From Minisyncoccia bacterium (GTDB lineage: Bacteria; Patescibacteriota; Minisyncoccia; Phycocordibacterales; DATDWN01), in contig JBAQUS010000011.1 of NCBI GenBank assembly GCA_049297675.1, positions 459 to 64,458 on the forward strand: DNA of 64,000 nucleotides, in the 5' to 3' direction. The translations under genes and the position numbers were made by a program. This document shows, piece by piece, positions 1-41,241 of the stretch; the stretch's first letter is position 1; every line of letters begins with the position of its first letter. The notes below the pieces were generated by a model. It searched no databases, was not told where the DNA came from, and was given only the letters and a program-made list of their open reading frames with translations.

Positions 1-2562
1 TTTCTCGTCAATCGAGCCAGAACGTTCTAACCAACCCTTACTTCCGTCAGCCTCAAGAACGATAAATTGATCGGAGTCCGACGAAACGGAGATACTAGAG
101 TTGTGAGTAGTAAACAAAAATTGCCGTGCGTGTTTGCTTATTCGTAGCTTTGAACAAATATCAGCCCAAATAGAAGGCACATCGAGAGCGTCTTCCGGCT
201 GGTCAATCACGACAGGCATACTCCCGTCTCCCAACGCAATCATTATCAAGGCGTCTGCCTTTTGACCCATAGAAAGTTCCGAGAGGGGGTAGTAATTCCC
301 GTCTTTTTTCTGATAAGAAATCTCAATGCGATCTTCGGGATAGCCTTTATACTGAAGGCATAAAGTCCCCAACAGATTTTCTGTCTCCATTAGCTCGTTA
401 ATTATATTTTCGGCTTTCTGCTCGGTAAGTTTAGCCACTTGAGAGAGCTTCTTAACGTTCCTGTCTAAAACCATCTCAACAAGATCGACGGGTGAAACTA
501 GACTCGCGATTTCTTCAACTTCTTTTTTCTCGGCGTGTGAGCCGACCTTCAATTTCTTGAGCAGTTGAATATAGGTCGCTTTATTATCTCCAGCCTGAAC
601 AACAATTTGTAGCTTCCCGCCTGATTTACCAGTGATGAGCTTTGCTTGATCTGATCTTTCCGTAAAGTATGCGGACTTTGTAGTTCCAAGTTTCGTCAAA
701 AGACCGCTTCGTTCCGTTCTAAGCGTAGAGTATGCTTTCGCAGCTTTTTGAGCGGCGGTAATCTTTGTATCCAAATCTTTCTTCTCTCCCATGAGTTTCT
801 TCCTATCAGTCTCAAGGCCTTCCTGTTTCTTTTGAAGTTTTATCTCGCCGTTATACTTTTTCTCAACTTGAGAATATTTATTAGTCTTTTCCCACGCTAT
901 TAAGTCAGCTTGCGACTTCTTCTTTGCTTTTCCGATTGCTTCGCGTTGCTTCTCCAACGCTACGACAACGGCAGTATAGCTATCGCTTATATTGGCTTCT
1001 ATAATTTCCAAAATCGCCTTCGGGGTTTTCTTACGGGTAGGAGTATTTTCACGAAAGTTGTTAATAGCTTCGTCCACACTCTCAAAGAGAGAGTCATATT
1101 CTTCAATCTTCCCCTCGATAGCCGACTTTTCTTCCGAGAGTTTTATATACTTTTCAGAAAATCCTTTTGCTCCCAACGCACCAAGGCTCGTTTTTAGTTT
1201 CTTAACTTTCTCCTCGACAGTTCCCTGTTGTTTAAGGAAAGAATCTAGGTTCGCTGATCCTTGGATAGCTTCATAGAGACTTCGGTCAAGGTTGCCTAAT
1301 TCCTGAATAATGCCGGAAACTTTATTCTGGTGTGATTCAAAGTCTCTAAAATTATCTAACAGGCGGAGTTGTGCTTCGGGGTCGCGAGTTATTTCTAGTA
1401 TCTCGTTTTGGCTATATATGAGCATGGGGAAAATAGAAGAAACATCGCCCTTAAACTCCTTGTCCGTAATTTTATTGAAGCACTTAATAGCAGAGGAGTA
1501 AGGGTCGCGGGGATTATCAAACGTCCGCGACAATTCATATTGTTCGCCGGAGGCGTCCTTAAAAACTACTTTAACTTCGCCGTTAATGCGGAGTTGTTTT
1601 TCCAACTTTTGCTTGTGATCCGACAGAAGGTCGTCATGGGGTTTGCGGTCAAAGGCAAACCGCAGAAACTCCACAATTAAAGACTTCCCCGTTCCAGTTC
1701 CTCCGATGACGCTATTCATGCTCGGACTAAAATCAATTTCTTGTCCGTCGAGAAACCCGCCCGTTATAGAGATTTTCTCTATTCTAGGGTGTTCGGGATT
1801 TATCTTTTCCGTTTCGTAGTCCTGAACAATACGACTGTCGGGGTCTTCAAAGCATTGCCGCAGAGATTCTATTGTCAGTTCGCCCATTCTGAAATAAGTG
1901 AAGCCACTTCCAATAGAGGCGAGGCAATGCCCTTTGTCGTCGGGACTCCTGTTGTCAGAAGATTTATATACGGCAAGTTTCCGCTGATAGGTAAGGTCTT
2001 GGCCGTTCAAATAATCTACCAGTCTCTTGCCCTCCGCTTTCTCAAAATCGCCCGATGTGGCTTCGACGGCTGATAGGTTTTTATTCTTCACTATATCGGT
2101 TCGCGGATTACCTTTTATGTCAGACAACGCCCCATGCGTTGAATTCGCATGAGCCAACACAGGTAAGCCTCCGGCGTCTCTAACTATGTCTACAACATCA
2201 GGGACGCTTTTCGAGGTTAGCGAATCTTCGCCTTTGCCTTTTATATCGAGCTTCCCCAAAACTTTCTGAAGGTCATCTTTTGTCTTGGAAGGATCGAAAA
2301 GAGCAATAACGTGTATAGAGCCATTTACCGATCCGCCACAAGATATTTCTACGCCCGGAAATATCGTGAATCCTTTTTTTCGAGCGGCTTCTTTGGCGGT
2401 ATCTATAAAATCAACTGTATTGTGATCCGTTATCGCGATAGCGTCTAAGCCAACCTTTTTGGCATGTTCAATTATCTTTTCAGCCGTAATCGCTTTATCG
2501 GTGAAATCATGTGAGGCCGGAGTGTGAACGTGAAGGTCTAGTTTTCTTAATATGAGGGACAT
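1..2562 (-). CDS. Partial (C-terminus off-window) PHP-domain phosphoesterase fused to an SMC/Rad50-like ABC ATPase; at least 854 aa visible
   Basis: Manual reverse-strand translation from ATG at 2562..2560 runs without a stop to position 1 in the frame that ends exactly at nt 1. It starts 11 nt after the res stop codon. N-terminus has PHP motifs (LDLHVHT..SHDF, AIAITDH, PGVEIS, HVIALF, PVLAHANS). Walker A is GGTGTGKS (rc of 1681..1740). A K/E-rich coiled coil follows, then ABC signature LSMGQK, Walker B VVIDQPEDALD and H-loop TTHNSS. Not in the ORF track because there is no in-window stop. Confidence 0.6.
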   Translation of the reverse strand, partial: MSLILRKLDLHVHTPASHDFTDKAITAEKIIEHAKKVGLDAIAITDHNTVDFIDTAKEAARKKGFTIFPGVEISCGGSVNGSIHVIALFDPSKTKDDLQKVLGKLDIKGKGEDSLTSKSVPDVVDIVRDAGGLPVLAHANSTHGALSDIKGNPRTDIVKNKNLSAVEATSGDFEKAEGKRLVDYLNGQDLTYQRKLAVYKSSDNRSPDDKGHCLASIGSGFTYFRMGELTIESLRQCFEDPDSRIVQDYETEKINPEHPRIEKISITGGFLDGQEIDFSPSMNSVIGGTGTGKSLIVEFLRFAFDRKPHDDLLSDHKQKLEKQLRINGEVKVVFKDASGEQYELSRTFDNPRDPYSSAIKCFNKITDKEFKGDVSSIFPMLIYSQNEILEITRDPEAQLRLLDNFRDFESHQNKVSGIIQELGNLDRSLYEAIQGSANLDSFLKQQGTVEEKVKKLKTSLGALGAKGFSEKYIKLSEEKSAIEGKIEEYDSLFESVDEAINNFRENTPTRKKTPKAILEIIEANISDSYTAVVVALEKQREAIGKAKKKSQADLIAWEKTNKYSQVEKKYNGEIKLQKKQEGLETDRKKLMGEKKDLDTKITAAQKAAKAYSTLRTERSGLLTKLGTTKSAYFTERSDQAKLITGKSGGKLQIVVQAGDNKATYIQLLKKLKVGSHAEKKEVEEIASLVSPVDLVEMVLDRNVKKLSQVAKLTEQKAENIINELMETENLLGTLCLQYKGYPEDRIEISYQKKDGNYYPLSELSMGQKADALIMIALGDGSMPVVIDQPEDALDVPSIWADICSKLRISKHARQFLFTTHNSSISVSSDSDQFIVLEADGSKGWLERSGSIDEK

Positions 2563-2573
2563 ACTTTGTAGGA

Positions 2574-5255
2574 TTATTTACTCCAACCGCGTATAACTTC
2601 TTGGAAGTTTCGGGGCTTCTGTTGTTGCTTCTCCCAATCTTCCTGCTTTATGTATAGCATTTCGTAAGTAGCGTTTTTCTGACTGGCGTTCACATCAACA
2701 CACCACTGTTCGAGACGCTTTATCTTTTCCACGTCGTCCAAGTCCTCACGGCCTTTCGTCTCCACAATGTAATACTCCTTTGGCGACACTTTTACAATAA
2801 AGTCGGGATAGTAGTCGGAGATATTCCCGTCGGCATTTTTATAGTCAATTTTGAAGTGAACCGCAAAGTAGTTTTTGACGTATGAAATTATGTCGTCGCA
2901 ACCCTCAAGAAAACTTGCGAACTCAAGTTCAAAATGACTATCGCCAATAATCTTATTGAAGATACTCTTTTTAGGAACGATATAACCCTGATCCTTCACT
3001 ACGAACGGACGGCTCTTGCTGATTTTTATATAGTCCCTGATTTCAGCTTCTCCCTTGTCCAATACAGTCAGAGTGTTTATCTCTTTTTTGAATGTCTCAA
3101 AAATTGTCCGCGAAGCCTCAATCTCTGACAAGTTGCGAAGTGAGTTTAAGTTATCAAGCTCAATACTCTTATCGAATAGTTGGTTTTGAATAAACTCCTT
3201 CACTTTTTCATAGAGAATATCATAACCGCTAACCAAGCGTAGCTCCTTCATAACACTTTGCGTGAAGTAGCCGACGACGCTTTGATAGTTCGGCACAAAA
3301 TTGCTATCCAGTTCTGTTTTATGAGTTATATCTCCGCTCGAAATATCGCGGAAAACAATCTCTCTTTTTTCTTCTTCGGAAAATTCTTTTAGTAGAATTT
3401 TCTTATGACCGAATTTTGCTACGTTAAGCTCCGAGAGATTTTTATATTCACGATATATTCTTGGCGTGAGAACGGGAATCTCAATATCCAGTTTCTCAAT
3501 GTCCTTTTTCATATTCTCCCGATCAACCTCAACGACAAGAGGGCTTTTTGGTCCTGAACCTTCACCCATTTTCTTGTGTTCAAGTTCAACGCCCTCGCTT
3601 TTGATGGACTCCACAAAGTCCATAAATGCGTCCGTGCCGACTACGCTAACAAGCTCCGGTAAGTTAGGGTCGCGATACATACGACGCAAGCCACGGCCAA
3701 GCGTTTGTTCGGGGAGAATGTTGCTTTGTGCGGTATAGGCACGCAAGCCGACAATCGTAGTAACATTCCGCACGTCCCAACCTTCTTTAAGCATAAGCAC
3801 CGAGACAATCGCTTTATGTGGACTCTCCAAACGATCTATCTCGTTCGCGGCCTTACGCAATATTTTCAATTCTTCTTCCTTCTTTCCGGTAACGCTCTCC
3901 GAAATATCTCCGTTGTCTTTGGTATGAATAACAAGCACCGCGTCCTTTAACTCCGAATATGTATTTTCGAGATACTTGGCGACTTCATCACAGTTCTTTG
4001 TATCGTCAGTCATAAGGAACAGCACGGCTTTTTTGTTGAGCTTGATATGCTCGTCATAAACCTTTTTCCACTCCAAATAACCGAGATGAATATAGTCCTT
4101 ATATTTTTCCGTGAAGTTAGAGCTTTTATGCTCCTGTAATTTCGCCCGACTCGCCAAATCGGGAAGGACGGGATGTTTTACCACATCTTGATGTATTGCT
4201 TCCACAAGCGGGTAATCGCTTGTCGTTTGAACAAAGATAGAGCCGTTGGTATGTTTCGGTGTAGCCGTAACGTCCACCTGTAAACTCAACTGATCGCCTT
4301 TCATTTTGAGGCGATTATGAATGTCCTCAATTGCTTTGAACCAAGCCATTCGCGGGTCGTGGATATGATGAGCTTCGTCGTTTAGCACAACCAGCTCATC
4401 TATATTACGGACAATATCGCCAAGATCGAGCTTCGATTCATTCGTCGCTCCGGCTGGCTTGTCGCCGAGAAAATAACTCGATGTATCTTGGTCTTCAAAA
4501 CTTGCCGATTCAATCGCTCCCTCATAGACGCGATGAATGTTCGTGAGAAAAATATTTCCAGTTTTTCTCACAGTTCCTATCTCGTCCTGAATATGAAGCG
4601 TTGCCTGAAAATCATCTCGCCAATTTTTCCCATCGTAGCCGTTGTCGGGAAGCACGGGGTCTTCAAAAAAGATTTTTAGTCCATCAAAATCAGCACGAAT
4701 ACGATCAAGGACAATAATGTTCGGCGTGATAACTAAGAAATTGCGAGCGAGTTTTGAATCTTCCTCATAGAGTTTGTGAAAGTAGCACCACGCTAAAATT
4801 AAACTCAATACTTTCGTTTTTCCTGAACCAGTCGCCATTTTTACGACATACCGCGTCCAGTCCTCATCAAACATTCCTGCTGAAATCGCTCCCGAACTGT
4901 CAAAACGAATCAGGTCATATTTGTCTCTCGCTTTAGCAACGTCGTAAAGCCAGACGATAGTTTCCACCGCTTCGCGTTGAGCGAAGTAATACTGAAATAA
5001 AAATACTTCTCCGTCCGATGTTTCCATCGGGTGATCTTTTAAGAACCACCAATTCAATAGGGCTTTACTTGTTTCGCTCGCTCCCTTATATCCCGTAAGC
5101 CGCCACTCTTTTACCTTCTTGCGAAGTTCCGCAACGAGCGGCGGGAGCAGTTTCTCATACCCCTTTTCCCGCAAATTCTCGTCAGCCGGAAACCAACGGA
5201 TTGCCGGATCGAGAATTTCATAAGGCGACTTGGGGAATTTTTGATGTAAAGCCAT
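2574..5255 (-). CDS. res: Type III restriction enzyme Res subunit (SF2 helicase with C-terminal PD-(D/E)xK nuclease)
   Basis: 893 aa. Helicase motif I MATGSGKTKV and DEAH-like LNDEAHHI. C-terminal PDFIVK..ETKG nuclease motif. Translationally coupled downstream of mod. Confidence 0.8.
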   Translation of the reverse strand: MALHQKFPKSPYEILDPAIRWFPADENLREKGYEKLLPPLVAELRKKVKEWRLTGYKGASETSKALLNWWFLKDHPMETSDGEVFLFQYYFAQREAVETIVWLYDVAKARDKYDLIRFDSSGAISAGMFDEDWTRYVVKMATGSGKTKVLSLILAWCYFHKLYEEDSKLARNFLVITPNIIVLDRIRADFDGLKIFFEDPVLPDNGYDGKNWRDDFQATLHIQDEIGTVRKTGNIFLTNIHRVYEGAIESASFEDQDTSSYFLGDKPAGATNESKLDLGDIVRNIDELVVLNDEAHHIHDPRMAWFKAIEDIHNRLKMKGDQLSLQVDVTATPKHTNGSIFVQTTSDYPLVEAIHQDVVKHPVLPDLASRAKLQEHKSSNFTEKYKDYIHLGYLEWKKVYDEHIKLNKKAVLFLMTDDTKNCDEVAKYLENTYSELKDAVLVIHTKDNGDISESVTGKKEEELKILRKAANEIDRLESPHKAIVSVLMLKEGWDVRNVTTIVGLRAYTAQSNILPEQTLGRGLRRMYRDPNLPELVSVVGTDAFMDFVESIKSEGVELEHKKMGEGSGPKSPLVVEVDRENMKKDIEKLDIEIPVLTPRIYREYKNLSELNVAKFGHKKILLKEFSEEEKREIVFRDISSGDITHKTELDSNFVPNYQSVVGYFTQSVMKELRLVSGYDILYEKVKEFIQNQLFDKSIELDNLNSLRNLSEIEASRTIFETFKKEINTLTVLDKGEAEIRDYIKISKSRPFVVKDQGYIVPKKSIFNKIIGDSHFELEFASFLEGCDDIISYVKNYFAVHFKIDYKNADGNISDYYPDFIVKVSPKEYYIVETKGREDLDDVEKIKRLEQWCVDVNASQKNATYEMLYIKQEDWEKQQQKPRNFQEVIRGWSK

Positions 5256-5259
5256 AAGT

Positions 5260-7356
5260 TTATACTGTTACCTCAATTACTTTCATCGTGTCGTTGCCGA
5301 ATATATCAACCACCTTCACAGCTACCTTGCGTTTGCCTGAATTGACCTCAACGGACGAGCTGATAAGTTCCAAGTCCCGTTTCTTTTTTGTGCGAAAGTC
5401 CTGCCACTCGTTCTCAAAGATATAATCGCCAGTCCAGCGTTCCTCGACTTCGCCCGTCTGCTCGTTCTTTACGCGGATAGTTTCTTTTTTGCTTTCGAAA
5501 TTGAAATCCACCGCCCAATAATCTATCCAGTCAGTCCACTTTTTCGTAAGAACTTCGCGACTCGTAACGCCGTCCTTGTCTTTGGCGATTTTGATAATTT
5601 GCCCGTTCTCAACCAAGAGCTTTTTACCACCCGCTTTCAGATTTTCTTCAACTTCCTTTATTGAGTCCTGATTGTAGAAAACTGAAAAATCGGTAAGCTC
5701 GATTGCGATAGTTTTTTTCTTCACAATCGGCTTAACCTCAATATACGAGACATCGTGGAAAACGACTTGATTCTTTTCTATCGCTCTCTTATCAAATACT
5801 TCGCGGGGAATGTATTTGAGAGCAAGATCAACCCCTTTGCTTTTCGCTTCTTCCTGAATTTTCGGGAACAATCCCATCTCAAATTCAAAGGCGAGAATAT
5901 CAACCTTTGTTATTTGCTTTTCAATACATTCGTTGATAACCGCCTCAACAAACAGACGCGAGGCAGGCAAATTGATAGGGCCTATGGAAACAAGACGAGA
6001 ACTTTTCTTGCCGTGAAATGTTTTGAATCCTGCCGTTGCTTCCGCCTTGTATGCGGAGAGTATCAAAGATACAAAATCTTTTTCCTTTTGGGCTATTTGC
6101 TTTACTTTTTCTTCTTCTCGTAAATTCGGATTTATACCTACATAATGTTGCCTCTCATACTTACCAAGATTGAGGATCTCAAACGCCCGATAATTTTTAT
6201 TATCTTTTTTCAATTGCCTTTGAACGTCTATCATTCTTTTGCGAGTAGTGTGTATTCCGAACTTTCCAAGGTCAGAGCCTATCCATTTTCTTCCTAATTT
6301 TTCTGCAACGGCAAGAGTCGTGCCAGAACCACAAAAAAAGTCAGCGACAATATTCCCCTCATTAGAAGAAGCTTTGATAATACGTTCCAATAAGGCTTCT
6401 GGCTTTTGAGTGTCATAACCAGTATCATCATTAGCCATTGAATTTAAACGCGGAATTTCCCACATGCTTCCAACTTTTCTTTCCTTAGATTCGTAATACA
6501 CGACTTTCCCACTTTCATCTTTCACAGTGACAGTTTTTCTTGCAACTGGATCCCATGTGATTTTATTTTGTTTTCTAGGTTTTTCTAGGGGGATAGATTG
6601 ATGGTAAAAAATATAATTTTTACTTTTTGAATACAATAATATACTCTCGGTGTCTCGTGGGAAATTGCGTGCGAATCCGAATTGCAGTTTATTACGATAG
6701 AACCAAGTTATTTGATTGACTAAATTTTCTTTTCCAAAAATCTCGTCAAGTAATAATTTAGTATAGGCATTAACATCGCCCCCGATATGCACATAAATGC
6801 TCCCGTCATCAGCAAGCAAATCTCTCATTAAAACTAACCTTTCATACATCATCGCAATCCAACTATCAGTTCCTTTACCCCAAGTGTCCCGATACGCAAG
6901 CTCCTCAAGCACGTTTGGTTTCTTAGTAAATTCCTCTCCACCAATTTCAATATTCATTGAAAAATCAGCGCCCACATCAAACGGAGGATCAATATAAATA
7001 AGTTTGATTCCTCCCTGTTCTTCAATCTCTTGTCGCAACGGCCCATTCTTTAAGGAAGAAAGAATTAGCTTGTTATCTCCCCAAATAAGTTTATTTGTCC
7101 AACCTGAAATCTGTCGGCCACCTTCTCCAAAAAGTAATCCTTGAACCTCTCTTGTTTTTTCAAAACGCGGCTCATCTACTTGCTCAATAACTTGAAACGG
7201 CAAAACCGTATTCGTTACCTCGCTTGTCTTTCCATTCCATACAAGCTCTACTTCTTGTTTCTCCTCAAATAATAAAAAACGATATTTGTCGGGCAAGGGT
7301 TTACCTGCCTCAATATATTTCTGAATATCTCTTTTTTCGTTGTCGCTTAGATACAT
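5260..7356 (-). CDS. mod: Type III Mod DNA methyltransferase (beta-class N6A/N4C MTase), long C-terminal extension
   Basis: 698 aa. Motif IV IYIDPPF precedes motif I FFCGSGTT, the beta-class order typical of Type III Mod. 4-nt gaps to the HTH gene upstream and res downstream. Confidence 0.75.
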
Positions 7357-7360
7357 AAAT

Positions 7361-7567
7361 TTATTTGATTAAGTCTTCAATCGGAACGCCAAGTGCTTTT
7401 GCGAGCCGTTCAATGTTTTTCAAAGCCATATTCCGCACACCCCGTTCAATACCGCTTATATAAGTCGAGTGAACGCCTAAAACTTTGGCGAGATCGGCTT
7501 GCGACATCTGTTTTTTGAGTCTAATTTCTCTAACTTTTTTTCCAAACTTGGCTGATATATCTGTCAT
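7361..7567 (-). CDS. XRE-family helix-turn-helix regulator, candidate controller (C) protein of the R-M operon
   Basis: 68 aa. Classic HTH_XRE sequence ([26 protein letters not shown]). First gene of the HTH-mod-res-PHP/ATPase operon. Confidence 0.7.
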
Positions 7568-7646
7568 AAAATCATATTACACCCCTTGCGTGCATTCTAT
7601 CAGATATTGTAATATAGTTCTATGTAGAATTATCATTCTACCCTAT
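7568..7646. promoter_or_regulatory. Divergent promoter/operator region between the HTH-mod-res operon and the recombinase gene
   Basis: 79-bp gap between divergent genes. Contains palindrome TAGAATtatcATTCTA (6-4-6) and other dyad symmetry (attcta..tagaat). Candidate C-protein operator. Confidence 0.3.
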
Positions 7647-9200
7647 ATGTCTAAATACTTTCTTTACGTCAGAAAAAGCACCGATGTTGAAGACAAACAA
7701 GTCCTCTCCATTGAAAGCCAACTCGCTGAATTGCGGGCACTCGCTAAACATGAGAATCTTTCCATCTCGGACGAGTTTATCGAAAAGCGTTCAGCAAAAA
7801 TGCCCGGTCGCCCGATCTTCAACGATATGCTCCGCCGCATACAGACGGGCGAAACACAGGGCATTATTTGTTGGAAAGTAGACCGCTTGGCTCGCAACCC
7901 CGTGGACGGCGGACAGATTCAATGGCTTCTTCAACAAGGCGTGATCCAACACATTCAAACACACGACCGAAGCCATTATCCAAACGATAATGTTTTGATG
8001 ATGTCCGTCGAGTTAGGTATGGCGAACGAATATATCCGACAACTAAGTGCGAACACCGCACGCGGGCTAAGGCAGAAAGCACGGCAGGGGGATTTCCCCG
8101 GCCTTGCCCCGCTTGGCTACATCAACAATTCCAACATCAAGAAAATTGCCGTCCATCGCAAAAATGCGAAACTCGTTAAGAAAATGTTTGAACTTTACGC
8201 AACGGGAAGTGTCCGTCTTGAAAATCTTTCCTTGGTTTTGGAACAGGCGGGTATCCAGTCCAAAAATAAAAATCGCGTTCATATCTCGCGAATATCAAAT
8301 ATTCTCTCTAACCCGATTTATTACGGACACTTCCGCCACGCAGGGGAAATATACGAGGGCAAGCACGAGCCGATAATCACTAAAGACCTCTTTGATAGGG
8401 CTAATGCCGTCTTGCGAGGCAGAGGCCGTACCCCCGACAAGAAAACCGACCCAAGGCCTTTTTGTGGCCTCCTGTCGTGTGGGAGTTGCGGTATGGGGAT
8501 AACGGGAGAGATAAAGATAAAGAGGCAGAAGAACGGCAACACCCATCGCTATGTTTATTACCATTGCACTAAGAAAAATAAGACGCAGAAATGCCCTGAA
8601 CCCTGTATCCGAGCGGAGGAGTTAGACCGCCAGTTGTCGGTCATGCTTACCGAATACACTATGCCGAAAGAATGGGTAGCCCCACTTTCCGCCATGCTCG
8701 ACAAAGAGGAACACGACACTAAAAATTCCGCGTCGGGGGCTGTTCAAGAAATGCGGGGGCAAGTCATAGACTTTTCCCGCAACCTCGCCCGACTTACCGA
8801 TGTCTATGTTGCACAAGACATAGAGCGAGATGACTACCTTGAGAGGCGTCGTTCGCTTATGTCCGAGAAGAAGTCCGTCGAGGAGCAAATAGCCCGTCTT
8901 GAACATACCCCCTCCGCGTGGATCGAACCGACCCGAGACTGGATTAAAGACGCTTCCATACTGGAAGAAGTAGCAAAAACAGACGACCTCCCCTCCAAAA
9001 AAATCTCCCTCCAAAAAATCTTCGGCTCGAACCTCACCTTAAAAAAACGCGGAGCGTTCGGAATTGCCCAAAACCATTGGCTTTCTTTGGCGAACGCCAA
9101 AGAAAAAATTTCTAAAAATGACCTTAGTTTAATTCTGGTGCGTCCAGCAGGAATCGAACCTGCGACCCTCTCCTTAAAAGGGAGTTGCTCTACCGACTGA
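7647..9200 (+). CDS. Large serine recombinase (resolvase/invertase N-domain, recombinase domain, zinc ribbon, coiled coil)
   Basis: Catalytic region YVRKSTDVEDKQ..SIESQ and DRLARN. Zinc ribbon CGLLSCGSCG..YYHC. The track ORF starts at 7485, but the N-extension overlaps the HTH gene and promoter; the first Met followed by the resolvase fold is at 7647. The last 21 codons are antisense to tRNA-Lys. Confidence 0.8.
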   Translation: MSKYFLYVRKSTDVEDKQVLSIESQLAELRALAKHENLSISDEFIEKRSAKMPGRPIFNDMLRRIQTGETQGIICWKVDRLARNPVDGGQIQWLLQQGVIQHIQTHDRSHYPNDNVLMMSVELGMANEYIRQLSANTARGLRQKARQGDFPGLAPLGYINNSNIKKIAVHRKNAKLVKKMFELYATGSVRLENLSLVLEQAGIQSKNKNRVHISRISNILSNPIYYGHFRHAGEIYEGKHEPIITKDLFDRANAVLRGRGRTPDKKTDPRPFCGLLSCGSCGMGITGEIKIKRQKNGNTHRYVYYHCTKKNKTQKCPEPCIRAEELDRQLSVMLTEYTMPKEWVAPLSAMLDKEEHDTKNSASGAVQEMRGQVIDFSRNLARLTDVYVAQDIERDDYLERRRSLMSEKKSVEEQIARLEHTPSAWIEPTRDWIKDASILEEVAKTDDLPSKKISLQKIFGSNLTLKKRGAFGIAQNHWLSLANAKEKISKNDLSLILVRPAGIEPATLSLKGSCSTD

Positions 9201-9211
9201 GCTATGGACGC
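9136..9211 (-). tRNA. tRNA-Lys (anticodon UUU), 76 nt with encoded CCA
   Basis: rc gives GCGTCCATAGCTCAGTCGGTAGAGCAACTCCCTTTTAAGGAGAGGGTCGCAGGTTCGATTCCTGCTGGACGCACCA. Cloverleaf folds with a 7-bp acceptor, D-arm GCTC/GAGC, anticodon loop CTTTTAA and T-loop TTCGATT. Near-identical in layout to E. coli tRNA-Lys. Confidence 0.85.
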
Positions 9212-9390
9212 AAAATACTTATGGAATATAACAGAAAAAAGTATCCTTAGCAAAAAATAAAATTGACTTCAAGACTATTTATCTTATTTTTTACTATACT
9301 AGTCATTAACATATTTAAATTTTGTCAATCTTGACTAATACCTTTTAAAAGACAAATGTACACTGATACCTAAGTTGTTTTAAAAAGAAT

Positions 9391-19261: not shown

Positions 19262-20261
19262 CTAGTTTTCGAGCCCGTTCATGAAGCCTGTGACGTACCA
19301 TGGCGGAGTCCATCCGCCAGTGGAACCATCTGTACCACCTACGCCGGTGTTGACACCCCCTCTACCTTTCGACGGACGAGACGGGAAAGGCAACCAATCG
19401 ATAGACTGGTCCTTTTGAGTATAGAAGTCATACCCGTAATTCGGGTAAATGGTGTAGGCAGGCGAGTACGCCAATCTCCCGCTCCGGCTTTTAGCAGTCA
19501 GTTTGACCTGCTTGGCTCCGTTGTAAAGCCAATCACGTGAGATTGAAATGGTTGCATCACCACCCGGACAGAAACTTGTGACAATCCACTTGCCATTTGT
19601 AGTGTGGACGTCAAAGATCTCCCCATCCATTGGGCTGTGGATGGTCAGGTAGACAGTTCGATCAATGTGTCGCATCCCAGAATTCGCATCCGGGTTGACG
19701 ATAGTCTTGCCGTCGAACTCAACCGGACATCGTAGATGCGCTGTACGAGCGGCATCGGCCTCTCGATTTGATCGTTTGATCACCGCATCGTGCTGTTTCT
19801 GGAGCTTGTTGCGAACCTTTCTCTCCTCGCTAGACGCCCCCTTGTAGAGCTCTGAGAGAATCTCGTTCTGCTCCTTCTTGAGGCTCTTCACCTCAGTATT
19901 AACCTCTACCCTAGCCTGATACAAACTAGGCTTTGGTTCGGTGGTCGTCAGAAGGTCTTCACTGAGCTTTTTGTCAAGCTCTCTCAAAGTCTTGAGACGC
20001 AACTCGATCTGCTCGAGCCTCGCCACCTCTGGAGATTTTCTCTCCGCAAGATGGTCCGGGATCGACCTTGTCTCGATTGGCTCGACCTCTTTCGAGACCG
20101 ACTGTGTAGAGATATTATCAACCTCCACCGTCAGCTCGTCAGCCGGAAGCCGAAGTTCAGGCTCGTCGACGACGATCGGCTTCTGCTGGCTCTGCGCCGA
20201 GGCAACCGACACGACAGTGAACGAAACGAAAATCATGAACGATTTCAAATAGCTGGCCATG
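19262..20261 (-). CDS. Secreted hypothetical protein (signal peptide, coiled-coil middle, beta-rich C-terminal domain); compositionally GC-rich
   Basis: Start moved to MASYLKSFMIFVSFTVVSVASA, which has a perfect AGGAGG Shine-Dalgarno 5 nt upstream (rc of 20262..20272). GC is clearly higher than in flanking genes. Confidence 0.55.
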
Positions 20262-20395
20262 CTGGCCTCCTTGTTAGATAGACCCCCATGGTCCGCTTTA
20301 ATTATACACCCAAATGTATCTTCTGTCAAGGTGTTAACAGTGGCTTAAAATAGGGCTATTTTTGAGCATTTTTCTATGATAAAATTAGGGGACTT

Positions 20396-36126: not shown

Positions 36127-38283
36127 GTGATAAAAAGAACAATTAGGAAGCACGGCTGGAGAAATATATTTGTTTTTTTTGTGTCCTGTGGGATGATTTT
36201 TTTAGGTATTATTCTTATTTGGGTCTCTTCATTCAAAATCCCCTCTTTAGACACCATTGAGGAGAGAAAGGTTAGTCAATCAACTAAAATATACGACTAC
36301 ACTGGAGAAATATTACTTTATGACGTCTTTCAAAAAACAAAAAGGACTGTTATACCGCTTGAAAACATTTCTCCAAATATTAAAGACGCTATTATCTCAA
36401 TCGAAGATAAAGATTTTTATACACACAATGGTTTCAAATTGAGATCTTTTTTAAGAGCTGTTTTTGTTAATGCAATTAACATTGGATTCTCGCAGGGTGG
36501 CTCTACTATTACTCAGCAGGTTGTTAAAAATTCAATACTAGTAGGAGATAAAACCATTACTAGGAAAATCAAGGAGATTGCCCTTTCCCTTAAACTTGAA
36601 AGGATCCTTTCCAAGGATCAAATTCTATCGATGTATCTCAATGAAATACCTTACGGTGGTAGTATTTATGGTGTTGAAGAGGCTAGTCAAACTTTTTTTG
36701 GGAAATCCGCTAGCGAATTGACTTTATCTGAGTCAGCCTATCTTGCCTCCCTTCCAAAAGCTCCGACTTTTTATTCTCCATATGGAAAAAATAAAACTGA
36801 ACTTGATAAGAGAAAAGACCTAGTTCTTGATGAGATGCTAAGAGATGGAAAAGTTACCAAAGAAGAACAAGAGTCTGCTAAAAAAGAGGTTGTTTCGTTT
36901 GTACCAAAAAGTGCAACTGGAATAAAAGCTCCCCATTTTGTGATGTATATAAAAGATTATTTAGAAAAAAAATATGGGGTGGATGTTCTTGAACATGGTG
37001 GATTAAGGGTAATAACCACGCTTAACTATAGTCTTCAGGCCAAGGCGGAAGAAATCGCAAAAAAGTACGCTGAAATCAACGAAAAAGATTTTAATGGTTC
37101 AAACGACGCATTTGTGGCAATTAACCCAAAAACGGGTTGGATTTTGACAATGGTGGGGTCTAGAAACTACTTTGATACAAAAATTGATGGAAACTTTAAT
37201 GTCACTCTCGCGCACAGACAACCTGGATCTACATTTAAGCCTTTTGCCTATGCTCAAGCCTTTATGAAGGGTTATACACCAGATACAGTTCTATTTGATC
37301 TACCAACTCAATTCTCTACAAACTGTCCAATAGACAACCTGACAAGCGAAAATGGATGCTACTCCCCAGGAAACTATGATGATAAGTTTAGAGGCCCTAT
37401 AACACTTAGAGAATCATTGTCCCAGTCAATTAACATCCCCTCTGTAAAAGTCTTGTATTTGGCTGGAATAAAAGAAACCCTAAGTTTAGCTGAGAGTATG
37501 GGTATAACAAGTCTTGGAAATTCAAATGAATATGGACTGACTTTAGTTTTGGGGGGGGGTGAGGTTACTCTACTTGAAATGACCTCTGCATACGGGGTTT
37601 TCGCTACAGAAGGATTAAAAGCCCCTTATACTGGAATAATTAGTGTTTTGGATTCTAATGGGAAGGTTTTAGAAGAATATAAATCAGCCCCAAATCAGGT
37701 TCTGGAACCAGAAATTACCCGAAAAATATCGGATATATTATCTGATAACGTTGCTAGAACTCCGTTATATGGGGCGAATTCCGTACTATACTTTCCTGGG
37801 GTAGACGTTGCAGTTAAAACCGGTACTACAAATAATTACAAGGATGCTTGGATTATAGGATACACACCAAGCGTTGTTGTTGGTACTTGGGCAGGAAACA
37901 ATGATAACACCTCAATGGCAAAAAAGGTTTCAGGACTTATAGTAGCTCCTATGTGGAGAGCATTTATGGATGAGGTCTTAAAAACAGTACCTAACGAAAC
38001 GTTTACTAGGCCAGAGAAAGAAGATTCCTTTGAACTTAAGCCTGTTTTGAGAGGTAGATGGCAAGGAGGAATTTCGAATTTAATTCAAGGAGGAACAATA
38101 GATACCGATGTTCCCTACAACTCTCAACAGGAAATATTGGCCGGTGGGGTACACTCAATTTTATACTGGTTACATAAAGACTATCCTAGAGGAGAAATGC
38201 CAGAATTTCCTGGGCAGGATCCTCAGTTTGAGAGATGGGAATATCCAATAAGAAACTGGGCTACATCGCAAGGATTGGAGTAG
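36127..38283 (+). CDS. mrcA: Class A penicillin-binding protein (glycosyltransferase + transpeptidase)
   Basis: GT51 motifs (EDKDFYTHNG, RKIKE). Transpeptidase STFKPF, SxN, KTG. Confidence 0.85.
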   Translation: MIKRTIRKHGWRNIFVFFVSCGMIFLGIILIWVSSFKIPSLDTIEERKVSQSTKIYDYTGEILLYDVFQKTKRTVIPLENISPNIKDAIISIEDKDFYTHNGFKLRSFLRAVFVNAINIGFSQGGSTITQQVVKNSILVGDKTITRKIKEIALSLKLERILSKDQILSMYLNEIPYGGSIYGVEEASQTFFGKSASELTLSESAYLASLPKAPTFYSPYGKNKTELDKRKDLVLDEMLRDGKVTKEEQESAKKEVVSFVPKSATGIKAPHFVMYIKDYLEKKYGVDVLEHGGLRVITTLNYSLQAKAEEIAKKYAEINEKDFNGSNDAFVAINPKTGWILTMVGSRNYFDTKIDGNFNVTLAHRQPGSTFKPFAYAQAFMKGYTPDTVLFDLPTQFSTNCPIDNLTSENGCYSPGNYDDKFRGPITLRESLSQSINIPSVKVLYLAGIKETLSLAESMGITSLGNSNEYGLTLVLGGGEVTLLEMTSAYGVFATEGLKAPYTGIISVLDSNGKVLEEYKSAPNQVLEPEITRKISDILSDNVARTPLYGANSVLYFPGVDVAVKTGTTNNYKDAWIIGYTPSVVVGTWAGNNDNTSMAKKVSGLIVAPMWRAFMDEVLKTVPNETFTRPEKEDSFELKPVLRGRWQGGISNLIQGGTIDTDVPYNSQQEILAGGVHSILYWLHKDYPRGEMPEFPGQDPQFERWEYPIRNWATSQGLE

Positions 38284-38309
38284 AAATAAAAATTAATTTT
38301 TTACTTCTA

Positions 38310-38564
38310 TCATTTTATATCTATAATTTTTGTATCAATATTTTTCGAAAAATTTTCTATTATTTCTTTTTTGTAAATAAAAATTTTGTTTTTTATTAGT
38401 GGACTGCTTTTCAAAAAAACTACACAATCTTTTAATTCAATGTTTTTTAGATCAACATCAATATTTGTTACTATTTTAATTTTTTCCTTTATTTTTTGTA
38501 TATAAAAATCATTTGATTTAACACTTTTAGAAAATTTTTCTAAATATTTGTTTATATTAAACAT
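38310..38564 (-). CDS. Small Lys/Ile-rich hypothetical ORF in an approximately 85% AT region; may be spurious
   Basis: 84-aa ORF only. Low-complexity composition. Confidence 0.25.
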   Translation of the reverse strand: MFNINKYLEKFSKSVKSNDFYIQKIKEKIKIVTNIDVDLKNIELKDCVVFLKSSPLIKNKIFIYKKEIIENFSKNIDTKIIDIK

Positions 38565-38583
38565 AAAGTTATAAACTTTTAAC

Positions 38584-39684
38584 TTATTTATTCATAGGCA
38601 TCACAAGATAAAGAAAGGAATTATCGTTAACACCTTTTATAACTAGAGGTTTATTAGTGTCTGAAAAGTACATTGTTATGCTTTCAGAATTAATAGACTG
38701 GAAACAGTCTATTATGTATTTATAGTTAAAGCTTATAGTTAGACTGTCTCCCTTTATAACAGAATCTATATTGTTTACATTTTCCCCTATATCCATGTTT
38801 TTTGTGGTTATTCTTAATTTCTTTTCTTTAGGTAAAATATTAAAAACAACTTGACTAAACTTATCAGAAAAAATATTTGATATTTTTAAACTTGAAATAA
38901 GATCTTGTTTAAGTAGTGTAACCTCAGTTTTTGGTTCTTTAGGAATAATTTGTTTGTAGTCAGGAAAAACCCCATCTATTATTCTTGAAGTTATATATAA
39001 ATCGTTATATGTGAATGATATTTGGTTTTCGTTAAGTGTAATATTTATATCCTCTTTTATATCATCTAGTACTCTTATTATTTCGGAAACATTTTTTTGA
39101 GGAATTAGAATCTGGCTAAAATCCTTGTGTTTTTTTATTGCTATTTTTTTTTCAGATAATCTAAATGAATCTGTGGCCACAAAAACAATATTCTCATCCT
39201 CTGATAAAACAAGGATACTCGATAAAACTGGTCTTATAGTTGAGATGGATGAGCTGTATACTACAGACTTAAAACCTTTTATTAGTAACTGAGTATTGAA
39301 TGAAAAAGATTTACCGTCGGAAATTTTTGGAATATTTGGAAAATCATCAATAAGAAACGTTTTGATAATAGACTCAGAATTTTTTGTTGATATTTTCAAA
39401 TTTCCTTTAACTTCCTCTAAATTTATATTTTTATCAGTGGTTGGATTAGATAAAAAATTATTTAGTATAGACCCAGAAACTGCTATCTTTCCTGGTTTAA
39501 TAACTTTTACTGGTATTGAAACTTCAATTCCTAGATCAAGATTTGTTGATTTTATTGTTAAAAGAGAATCATGAGCATCTAATAAAACACAACTAAGAAT
39601 AGGTAAGCTAACATTTTTGGTAGTTATTTTTTCCGCTTTAGATATCGCGTAAACCAATTTTTCTTTAACACATTCAATATTCAT
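38584..39684 (-). CDS. dnaN: DNA polymerase III beta sliding clamp
   Basis: 366 aa. N-terminal pattern typical of DnaN. Immediately downstream of dnaA. Confidence 0.8.
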   Translation of the reverse strand: MNIECVKEKLVYAISKAEKITTKNVSLPILSCVLLDAHDSLLTIKSTNLDLGIEVSIPVKVIKPGKIAVSGSILNNFLSNPTTDKNINLEEVKGNLKISTKNSESIIKTFLIDDFPNIPKISDGKSFSFNTQLLIKGFKSVVYSSSISTIRPVLSSILVLSEDENIVFVATDSFRLSEKKIAIKKHKDFSQILIPQKNVSEIIRVLDDIKEDINITLNENQISFTYNDLYITSRIIDGVFPDYKQIIPKEPKTEVTLLKQDLISSLKISNIFSDKFSQVVFNILPKEKKLRITTKNMDIGENVNNIDSVIKGDSLTISFNYKYIIDCFQSINSESITMYFSDTNKPLVIKGVNDNSFLYLVMPMNK

Positions 39685-39888
39685 AATATTTAATTTATTT
39701 TAAAGTAATTACTATTATATATGCATATACTGTGTATAATTACAAAATATCCTTGTTTGTAGCTGTATTATTATAAAATCAATTGTTAACAACTTTGTAT
39801 ATTATTCTTTAATAATTAATTATCAAGTCCTTATTAACAATTAATAATATACTTTAAACATACTTCTCTACACACTATACACATTTCA
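39685..39888. promoter_or_regulatory. AT-rich dnaA-dnaN intergenic region with DnaA-box-like 9-mers; candidate oriC component
   Basis: cTATACACA (8/9 to TTATACACA) near 39870 and tTATCCttg. AT content above 75%. Confidence 0.3.
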
Positions 39889-41241
39889 TTAAATAAATAT
39901 AGAGCGCAGTTGATTTATTTCTTGTATTAAAACTTCATCCATTTTCATATCATTTTTTATTTTTTCACAAGAATGCATAACAGTTGTATGATCTCTTCCA
40001 CCCAGCCTTTCCCCAATTGCTGGGTATGAAATACTAAAATCTTCCCTTAAGATATACATAATTATTTGTCTTGGTTTTATAACTTCCTTTTTTCTTGTTT
40101 TATCGTAAATAAGTTGTTCTTCTATATTATAAAAATCCGCCACAGTTTTTACTACCTCTTTAGTCGAAACAAGTTTTTTTGGTTTGGTGTTATTTTTAAC
40201 AAAATTTTTAACTTCTGTTAAGGAAAGTTCTCTACCTTTAAGTTCAGATTGGCAAGTGATAGAGTTTATTATTCCTTCAAGTTCTCTTATATTTCCATTA
40301 ATTGAGTATGCTAGGTAATCCACAGTATCTTTTGTTAATGGATATAGGGCTTGTGCAGACTTATGCTTAATAATTGCTGCTCTAGATTCGTTATCTGGTG
40401 TAGGAATATCAACTATCATTCCCTGACTAAATCTGGATTTTAGTCTTTCCTCTAAATCCTGAATGAGCCCAGGATGTTTGTCTGAAGAAAATATTATTTG
40501 TTTGTTGTTTTCGTATAGATGGTTAAAAAGATGAAAAATTTCCTCTTGAATTTTCATTTTTCCTGAGAAAAATTGAATATCGTCCATTATGAGCACATCG
40601 TATTTTCTATACTTTTCCTTGAAAAAATTTGGCTTATTGGCTTGTATTGCATTCACATATTCTTGGCTAAACTTTTCCGAGGTAGTGTAAAAAACTTTTT
40701 TACTTCCTGTATTTTTAAGATAGTTTCCAACAGCTTGTATAAGATGTGTTTTTCCGTGACCCGTTCCACCATATATAAACAAAGGATTATAGACTATTCC
40801 CGGTTTTTTGATGACGGCCTGACTGGCTGCATAAGCGAACTCGTTAAATGGTCCGACTATAAATGATTCAAACGTGTATCTTGGATTAAGATTATCTTCT
40901 TTGTTTATATATGTGTCAGCAATAGGGAGCTCACGAGTTGCTTGGGGTATGGATTTTTGGGTTTCCTGTCTTTCTTTCATCTCTTCCTTACTGATTACAT
41001 AATGAAGAGATTGGACATTACCAGATATATTTCTGAGAGTCTTAAGAATAAGGTTGTGAAACTTGCTACCCAACCAGTCTTGGACAAATGTGTTTGGTAC
41101 CCCAAGATAAACAGCTCCATTTTCTTGTCTAATAATCACTGTGTCTTTAAACCAGGTGTTGAAATTAGGTTTAGATAGACTCAATTCCATTTCCACTAAT
41201 ACACCGTCCCAGAGTTTTTTGTTATCCAACATGGGATACAT
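39889..41241 (-). CDS. dnaA: Chromosomal replication initiator DnaA
   Basis: AAA+ Walker A GGTGHGKTHL. C-terminal DNA-binding helix (HTTVMHSCEKI). Confidence 0.9.
   Translation of the reverse strand: MYPMLDNKKLWDGVLVEMELSLSKPNFNTWFKDTVIIRQENGAVYLGVPNTFVQDWLGSKFHNLILKTLRNISGNVQSLHYVISKEEMKERQETQKSIPQATRELPIADTYINKEDNLNPRYTFESFIVGPFNEFAYAASQAVIKKPGIVYNPLFIYGGTGHGKTHLIQAVGNYLKNTGSKKVFYTTSEKFSQEYVNAIQANKPNFFKEKYRKYDVLIMDDIQFFSGKMKIQEEIFHLFNHLYENNKQIIFSSDKHPGLIQDLEERLKSRFSQGMIVDIPTPDNESRAAIIKHKSAQALYPLTKDTVDYLAYSINGNIRELEGIINSITCQSELKGRELSLTEVKNFVKNNTKPKKLVSTKEVVKTVADFYNIEEQLIYDKTRKKEVIKPRQIIMYILREDFSISYPAIGERLGGRDHTTVMHSCEKIKNDMKMDEVLIQEINQLRSIFI

Follow-up and report, generated by a model that had tools for sequence, protein, structure and literature searches.

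What kind of DNA abuts the tRNA-Lys(UUU) gene at its 3′-end in a genome of a Minisyncoccia bacterium (Patescibacteriota), and how could it have been brought there? We analyzed a stretch of 64,000 nt (assembly GCA_049297675.1, contig JBAQUS010000011.1, positions 459 to 64,458 of the forward strand), referred to below as the window; the island in question occupies window positions 1–9140 and carries a recombinase gene along with an operon of restriction–modification (R-M) and ATPase genes. We consider it very probable that the island is the tRNA-proximal part of a mobile element integrated at the 3′ terminus of tRNA-Lys(UUU) by a large serine recombinase (LSR). This interpretation is supported, at the level of sequence comparison, by base composition, by the association with a tRNA, by attachment (att) sites, by empty and occupied sites in relatives, by varied cargo and by cargo proteins that occur across lineages. 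The window island is an ordinary member of a family of such elements.

A preliminary description of the locus, made from the sequence alone, had proposed a horizontally acquired integrative element with a defence cargo; composition, att sites in relatives and the variable cargo support this proposal. The ‘classic’ tRNA-island signature invoked there has to be given up: the recombinase is an LSR, not a tyrosine integrase, and the core shared between sites is 3–6 nt only.

The island, its target tRNA and its recombinase

The compositional foreignness of positions 1–9140 is real. GC content is 0.430 in positions 1–9135 and 0.369 in positions 9212–64000; the contrast reported earlier (45–50% against 35%) thus held, but its size did not, and values near 50% are limited to the recombinase gene (0.487) and the interval at 8–9 kb (0.499). 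At 10–14 kb the total GC equals that of the island (0.42–0.43), arising there from codon positions 1 and 2. The windowed GC and k-mer comparison that the preliminary description had suggested showed that composition is not uniform and set the island apart: GC content at third codon positions (GC3) is 0.44 for the island and 0.38–0.54 in its five genes versus 0.309 ± 0.060 in 37 other open reading frames (ORFs), with 0.30 and 0.34 in two neighbours at 10–14 kb, and tetranucleotide usage over 1–8 kb is the most distant from that of the remaining window (0.32–0.37 versus about 0.15).

The tRNA gene has its 3′-end pointing toward the island, as had been noted before, and the final few nucleotides of the gene are supplied by the element. 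The Rfam match and the anticodon loop (Table 1) identify tRNA-Lys(UUU); the gene also aligns without gaps, with identity at 59/76 positions, to E. coli tRNA-Lys(UUU). ARAGORN reports a ‘tRNA-Stop(tta)’ at 9136–9211. We rejected a suppressor tRNA or recoding, as this call is a one-base register artefact: the Rfam match and the E. coli comparison give Lys(UUU), while the tta structure works only if a C.A mismatch is accepted internally, the variable loop has 4 nt and the D and anticodon stems are 2 nt apart. The ORFs of the window are intact under code 11, which speaks against recoding. Automated annotation of this tRNA could wrongly point to recoding.

A Pfam domain search found no tyrosine (phage-integrase-type) recombinase domain in any island ORF, leaving the LSR as the sole recombinase. 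It has the catalytic domain PF00239 and, C-terminal to it, PF07508 and the zinc beta-ribbon PF13408; the catalytic-serine motif R9-K10-S11-T12-D13 is invariant in an alignment of 22 homologous sequences. The nearest solved structures, SPbeta SprA (SprA/YokA) and A118 Int, were matched over the Recombinase and zinc-ribbon domains. Its best NCBIfam match is CcrB, with all Ccr scores below the family cutoffs (CcrB 107.6 bits, cutoff 900; CcrA 76.5, cutoff 700; CcrC 68.8, cutoff 900).

When 8,000 candidates were scored, 3,894 relatives were found at E ≤ 1e-20. The top 120 are 63–96% identical to the window protein and mostly about 516 aa long, and those of them that are named come from Patescibacteria; the family appears to comprise thousands of proteins, nearly all from metagenome-assembled genomes (MAGs) of Patescibacteria. 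A phage origin was rejected: IMG/VR contains no family relatives, annotated phage and plasmid recombinases have at most ~31% identity to the window LSR (annotated phage recombinases alone, at most 26%), and no phage genes were seen in annotated elements.

For comparison we used 79 loci from a scan of species-representative genomes, 3 from exact look-ups and 33 from metagenomes scanned for the window-type arm sequence (see below); individual loci are designated by L numbers. The stop codon of the window recombinase falls within the tRNA gene, which is on the opposite strand, and in nearly all loci with sequence past the stop an opposite-strand tRNA likewise adjoins or overlaps the 3′-end of the recombinase gene. 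The C-terminal ~20 residues of the homologs, which vary from one homolog to another, are an antisense translation of tRNA T- and D-arms. No more than 250 nt from the recombinase stop, ARAGORN predicted tRNAs for Thr-GGU (24), Thr-CGU (12), Thr-UGU (6) and others; the further targets of the family are Gly, Phe, Gln, Val, Arg, Asn, Trp and Ala. One 813-kb contig contains three copies of the element at three different tRNAs. Clustering of 861 ORFs revealed no conserved gene beside the arm; only the recombinase is universal.

Inverted repeats and attachment sites

The other end of the island had been predicted to lie beyond the window start, correctly. An exact-protein look-up retrieved the 179-kb contig JBAQTD010000011.1 (GCA_049296815.1, labelled Minisyncoccia), in which window position 1 is position 460; this contig reaches just 459 nt beyond the window start and ends inside the element. 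The direct repeat of the tRNA-Lys 3′ segment, expected by the preliminary description to mark that end, is absent, and neither the rest of the window nor the preceding 459 nt contains a tRNA-Lys fragment. What precedes the window start instead is an inverted copy (IR-L) of the recombinase-proximal end, matching window 8984–9144, that is, the 3′-end of the recombinase gene plus the first bases of the tRNA 3′-end. The proximal copy (IR-R) encodes the recombinase C-terminus. The inter-repeat span is 9,483 bp, and the two copies differ by 2 mismatches and one 11-nt indel; into the tRNA-Lys gene the similarity of the repeat extends for 5 nt, or for up to 9 nt with a chance match. Since LSR sites share a 3–6-nt core only and no long repeat, the lack of an att repeat, which had been proposed as grounds for discarding the integrative element, would discard a true one. 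The repeat contains a conserved hairpin, with compensatory two-sided changes at 5/6 predicted pairs across 26 family members, and at the window core (TGGTG) we infer a crossover within the last 3 nt.

Three Logan unitig contigs, which come from other runs, match the window at 100% identity and are broken just inside both repeat copies. Assembly contigs often end 50–170 nt past the distal repeat or within the arm, as at the start of the window element and in L005, L007, L022, L043, L072 and L121. Short-read assemblies break at such long, near-identical inverted repeats, and MAGs therefore contain these islands in systematically truncated form.

Inverted repeats of ~150–185 bp were present in 54 loci, with the proximal copy ending 3–5 nt inside the tRNA and an inter-repeat span from 1.76 kb (little besides the recombinase) to 10.6 kb. 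Over the last 100 nt the two copies are 99% identical within an element versus 50% between elements, a sign of concerted evolution. Outside the distal repeat lies a ~38-nt motif conserved among elements whose tRNAs differ (consensus TcCCTcTTAAACgAGGCTaGAACCtAtTTTAGCAAAAAT, in the window element TGTCTCGTAAAGGAGGCTCGCACTTATTTTAGCAAAAAT), followed by a structured ‘arm’ of ~150–340 nt whose hairpins show compensatory changes. The hairpin at the arm end has compensatory stems CCGCA/TGCGG, CCGCGGGCA/TGCCCGCGG and CCGCGCGCA/TGCGCGCGG and a conserved G-rich loop GGAGGGGTTTGGGGAGGAA; arm hairpins can be seen, for example, in L016:7544–7738, L028:5472–5722 and L020:7893–8066. This non-coding arm could be a structured DNA or RNA element. 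The idea that it is a promoter of outer cargo was dropped, as the genes are not consistently oriented to the arms from one subfamily to the next.

Where, then, does the element end? The distal inverted repeat was rejected as its left end, for the DNA outside it is conserved between elements located at different tRNAs. The end of the left arm was rejected as well: a second core, motif and arm, facing the first and often 98–100% identical to it, was found 3–8 kb further out in about 16 loci, and beyond it come host genes. The window itself has no further arm copy elsewhere. Three-way comparison of the sites in 10 relatives gave attL as unrelated DNA, core and motif; the internal site as repeat tip, core and motif; and attR as repeat tip, core and tRNA body. 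Outside attL we saw terminator hairpins in L079, L051 and L100, as expected after a tRNA gene, and host genes: a release-factor-2-like gene at 28–42 nt, then an FtsE-like gene.

The comparison with relatives lacking the island, which had been suggested earlier, could be made at tRNA-Thr(CGU) sites of the family. In L051, L044 and L056 an empty tRNA-Thr(CGU) stands directly beside the release-factor gene (‘...GAACTTC-TTGGAG-CCACCTCCCGGGATTGAACC...’). The occupied site in L079 reads ‘...GGGTTTTGATT-TTGGAG-ACCCTATTAAAC(motif)... 7.4 kb ...tttcgatt-TTGGAG-CCATCGGCCGGGATTGAACC(tRNA)’; both L079 and L060 are occupied beside the orthologous release-factor gene, that of L079 being 80% identical to the one at the empty sites. 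The comparison of empty and occupied sites indicates a precise site-specific insertion.

The core common to attL, internal site and attR is 3–6 nt, antisense to C72-N73-C74-C75, with no long identity. Its two versions do not always agree: L011 has CTTGAG at attL and CTGGAG at attR, L060 has the reverse, and in L019 only GAG is shared. Exchange would therefore take place within the last three bases (antisense of C72-N73-C74), and the crossover dinucleotide would therefore include the discriminator base. The repeat tips track the target, being AG for Thr and Gly-UCC (U73) and TG for Lys, Phe, Gly-CCC and Val (A73); at Gln and Asn targets the tip is CT.

On the motif side, the sequence GAAC starts at nt 20 beyond the core in 37/46 loci (the window element has GCAC), while the T-arm GAAC of the tRNA half-site begins at nt 16 (25/30), a shift of 4 nt. 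In a model of the A118 integrase the spacing of attP- and attB-type half-sites reportedly differs by about 5 bp; the 20- versus 16-nt offset resembles such a difference. No conservation between hosts is seen in the half of attB that lies downstream of the tRNA; the recombinase thus probably reads mainly the tRNA half-site. Scars fit this expectation: old repeat tips lie outside attL in L044, L104 and L106, and a tip is tandemly duplicated in L020.

Proposed mechanism and alternatives

We propose that the LSR mainly recognizes the tRNA acceptor/T-arm half-site. The last ~160 bp of the element (IR-R) end in TGGTG, which rebuilds C72-A73-CCA and leaves the tRNA intact. In relatives the integrated element has at one end an attR composed of repeat tip (P), core and tRNA body (B′), and at the other an attL composed of host DNA with the old tRNA terminator (B), core, and the ~38-nt motif (P′) with the arm. 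The internal site corresponds, in inverted orientation, to the attP to be expected after excision, and the element would leave as a circle bearing two inverted copies of attP. The internal copy would split the element into an inner compartment (here the HTH gene, Type III R-M and the TrlF ATPase) and an outer one, which in some relatives appears to hold defence genes and in others TrwB/Replic_Relax transfer-type genes. In the window element, positions 1–9140 comprise the inner compartment and the integration module, and the internal inverted attP copy occupies contig positions 1–292; outer compartment, far arm and attL would lie beyond the contig start. Its predicted attB is terminator-TGGTG-CGTCCAGCAGG..., and its predicted attP …TTAATTCTGGTG-TGTCTCGTAAAGGAGGCTCGCAC….

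One could speculate further that the internal copy is functional rather than a relic, making these pseudo-symmetric two-module LSR elements, with a recombinase/cargo unit within inverted P arms and a transfer/cargo unit within inverted P′ arms; we regard this extension as rather unlikely. If true, the duplicated site would permit flipping or exchange of modules, or integration in either of two ways. The recombinase would then recognize an essentially universal tRNA acceptor/T-arm half-site, while the crossover dinucleotide, including the discriminator base, would set the target; the family would then comprise thousands of naturally re-targetable integrase variants, and the att sites of each could be read off its sequence.

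Several observations weigh against integration by the LSR as proposed. The attL, the outer compartment and an empty tRNA-Lys site of the window element were not recovered: the contig starts inside the arm, Logan unitigs break within repeats and tRNA, and look-ups by exact proteins (Res and the neighbouring host gene) returned only the same contig and short unitigs broken in the repeats or the tRNA. Among the sampled loci a Lys target was seen in the window element alone. About nine loci with 4–10 kb of left flank have no far arm copy; no locus has a full recombinase gene directly followed by motif and arm, as a circular junction would; and no candidate directionality factor is conserved across the family. 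The recombinase is absent from the gene list of the NCBI record (L001/L087) though its ORF is full length in comparison with homologs; it is probably missing owing to the overlap with the tRNA, and the whole family may be under-annotated. Finally, four loci depart from the standard arrangement. In L027 (9424–11494) an intact tRNA abuts the distal, not the proximal, repeat, and the expected partner site is also absent; in L046, L049 and L080 tRNA-like sequence replaces the motif at the distal repeat. Recombination at the internal site may have produced these arrangements, or the repeats may have been assembled across wrongly.

Among other explanations we considered first an invertible segment, with the ~170-bp inverted repeats as crossover sites of an invertase that flips a 9.5-kb block of recombinase and defence genes in the manner of Hin/Gin/Pin. 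The repeats that flank recombinase and cargo are indeed near-identical and evolve in concert, although the 11-nt indel distinguishing the two copies is kept across many lineages. Both tips have the same core beside similar GAAC-containing half-sites, like hixL/hixR, but invertases have ~190 aa, and this enzyme is an LSR of 517 aa. The opposite orientation of L027 relative to its tRNA would be expected from flipping; this locus is, however, the sole exception to a tRNA-proximal recombinase in about 60 loci, and it also lacks the expected partner site. With insertion demonstrated by the empty and occupied sites and by true attL junctions, an invertible segment is quite improbable, and frequent inversion of the repeat-bounded segment appears unlikely.

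About as improbable, in our view, are two nested mobile units moved by one recombinase: an IS-like repeat-bounded block, with P-type tips at both ends, placed between the tRNA and an arm-bounded unit whose ends are inverted copies of motif and arm. In the empty/occupied case the entire attL–attR span is present or absent as one piece, and the sites bounding either unit are inverted, so that recombination gives inversion, not excision. Each unit does have symmetric ends, unit combinations vary among related elements, minimal repeat-bounded units of 1.76–2.0 kb contain little besides the recombinase, and L046, L049 and L080 have tRNA-like sequence in place of the motif; yet no repeat-bounded unit was seen with plain host DNA distally, and no arm-bounded unit was seen directly at a tRNA without the recombinase unit.

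A classic tyrosine-integrase island, in which the element carries the tRNA 3′ half and a direct repeat of 15–50 nt marks the far end, is extremely improbable: it would account for the position at a tRNA 3′-end and for the foreign composition, and another family leaving displaced tRNA-Thr 3′ halves does occur at the same tRNAs in some relatives, but the LSR is the only recombinase present, similarity to the tRNA stops after 5 nt (at most 9 nt with the chance match), the attL of relatives shares just the 3–6-nt core, and the window with its preceding 459 nt has no other tRNA-Lys fragment.

Cargo and comparison with known systems

The gene content given in the preliminary description (recombinase plus an HTH-mod-res-PHP/ATPase operon) was borne out by Pfam, NCBIfam and PADLOC matches (Table 1).

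Table 1. Island features and target tRNA, in window coordinates
Feature	Position	Strand	Evidence or remark
TrlF-family PHP-domain + SMC-like AAA ATPase (cargo)	1..2562	-	Pfam PHP 1.4e-10, AAA_21/SMC_N; NCBIfam NF045780
Type III restriction enzyme Res subunit (cargo)	2574..5255	-	Pfam ResIII 1.6e-14, weak RE_endonuc; PADLOC REase_III 4.7e-17
Type III Mod DNA methyltransferase (cargo)	5260..7356	-	Pfam N6_N4_Mtase 1.2e-48; PADLOC MTase_III 5.7e-116, full length
HTH (Xre/C-protein-like) regulator, 68 aa	7361..7567	-	HTH_3 1.5e-16; PADLOC R-M ‘Control_protein’ 3.3e-22
LSR, 517 aa	7647..9200	+	Resolvase 1.1e-20, Recombinase 4.5e-15, Zn_ribbon_recom 1.7e-9
Proximal inverted repeat IR-R, P arm of attR	8984..9140	.	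inverted copy IR-L at window -338..-167 (contig 121-292)
Conserved hairpin in repeat, TTTCTTTGGCG-AA-CGCCAAAGAAA	9082..9105	.	read from sequence
Recombination core TGGTG	9136..9140	.	antisense of C72-A73-C74-C75-A76 of tRNA-Lys
tRNA-Lys(UUU), host target, B′ half of attR	9136..9211	-	Rfam tRNA 73.7 bits, loop C-U-UUU-A-A

Mod and Res stand in tandem with 4 nt between the genes, as in Type III R-M systems. The ATPase gene is clipped by the window: the full protein has 880 aa, with the stop 80 nt before the window start, and even with 27 C-terminal residues outside the window it scores 384.3 bits against NF045780 TrlF (cutoff 350). It also resembles the single-gene defence protein Ppl, where the PADLOC match (4.7e-43) means relatedness only, the score against NCBIfam NF042955 (220.9 bits) being below the cutoff of 1000. 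Literature searches found no paper describing TrlF. The HTH gene, first of the cargo operon and divergent from the recombinase, is probably cargo rather than core of the element, because a homolog upstream of the recombinase was found in just 10/54 family loci. By these matches, the HTH-Mod-Res-TrlF cargo would be an anti-phage defence operon. The 90% cluster of Res has members in MAGs of Minisyncoccia, Giovannonibacteria and the Parcubacteria group.

Cargo is modular. Elements L005 and L123 (at tRNA-Gly-CCC), as well as L100 and L105, have ends in common at 91–95% DNA identity and different cargo. In two JGI metagenome contigs (L118:1–9648 and L121:999–10884) the window Mod and Res recur at 92% DNA identity and the recombinase at 91%; the TrlF region is unmatched there, with a different gene in its place, and the ATPase is therefore an exchangeable module of the operon. 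The outer compartments have, by sequence motifs, defence-type genes in L011 (T5orf172-like and Type I R-M) and L019 (two methylases). In the window subfamily the outer compartment of L094 (1886–7801) has genes for two coupling-protein ATPases of TrwB/TraG-like type, for a Replic_Relax protein and for an S49 peptidase, which suggests that some elements may be mobilisable or conjugative; a TrwB-like gene also adjoins the arm in L066 and L006.

In L025, L041, L044, L051, L073 and L085 the element abuts the 3′ half of a tRNA-Thr only (e.g. L044:11494–11540), followed in most of them by a conserved ‘TTCGCTTACAC’. A scan of four loci located intact tRNAs 3–6 kb beyond the halves. A group I intron was considered for these half-tRNAs, but Rfam found none, and the intact tRNAs further on point to a second family. 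It seems that a second, different integrative family, one that duplicates the tRNA 3′ half, uses the same tRNAs, leading to tandem accretion.

Two more regions of the window stand out in composition. A 355-aa ORF at 19262–20329 (- strand), 10 kb from the island, has no Pfam match and a GC content of 0.52 with GC3 0.61 versus 0.31 in the host, making it a second compositionally foreign gene. Positions 38001–41000 are unusually AT-rich (GC 0.25–0.27; GC3 0.185 in the ORF at 38584–39684).

LSR integrative elements, tRNA-end islands and SCC-type insertion at gene 3′-ends are already well known. Literature searches found no account of the LSR family described here, of LSR crossover at a tRNA discriminator or of an internal inverted attP copy; the family is apparently both very large and previously undescribed. 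Mobile elements of the candidate phyla radiation (CPR)/Patescibacteria are poorly characterized, and, as this family carries R-M and other defence genes between lineages, it may be a main route of defence-gene exchange among these ultra-small bacteria. Att sites that can be read from genomes, together with a specificity apparently linked to the discriminator, should interest those mining serine integrases for genome engineering.

The closest parallel is with the serine-integrase elements (SPbeta SprA, A118/LI Int, phiC31, Bxb1), which have the same architecture of Resolvase, Recombinase and zinc ribbon and likewise few bases common to attP and attB at the crossover, the motif spacing being 20 versus 16 nt here. 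Unlike them, the window family targets a tRNA 3′ terminus and rebuilds it, with crossover on the discriminator base and a recombinase ORF overlapping the tRNA; it has no conserved directionality-factor gene, its recombinase is at most ~31% identical to annotated phage or plasmid recombinases, and it keeps an internal inverted attP copy with about 300–500 bp of flanking identity. To our knowledge the latter has no counterpart among known serine-integrase systems, and the literature searches found none either.

Classical tRNA islands and tycheposons share with the family the insertion at tRNA 3′-ends, the modular defence or adaptive cargo and the repeated use of hotspot tRNAs. Only a minority of tycheposons carry an LSR; tyrosine recombinases, which leave partial tRNA genes, are found in 910/937 (bioRxiv 10.1101/2020.12.28.424599). 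In contrast to both, the window family shares 3–6 nt only and uses serine-recombinase chemistry.

In Hin/Gin/Cin/Pin systems, too, a segment encoding a serine recombinase lies between inverted repeats whose outer boundary is the crossover site. Those systems have small (~190 aa) invertases with a C-terminal HTH and 26-bp sites, and both orientations coexist; in the window family orientation is essentially fixed across about 60 loci and true insertion junctions exist.

Staphylococcal cassette chromosome mec (SCCmec), moved by CcrA/B/C, is like the window family a cargo island that LSRs insert in a conserved host gene, at its extreme 3′-end, with the gene preserved, and has terminal inverted repeats, tandem accretion and scars at the same site. 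The differences lie in the enzyme, which here is a single recombinase and no Ccr protein; in the target, a tRNA and not rlmH; in the Patescibacteria hosts; and in the repeats, which are short and terminal in SCCmec, whereas those of the window family are 150–185 bp long and are part of a duplicated internal attP.

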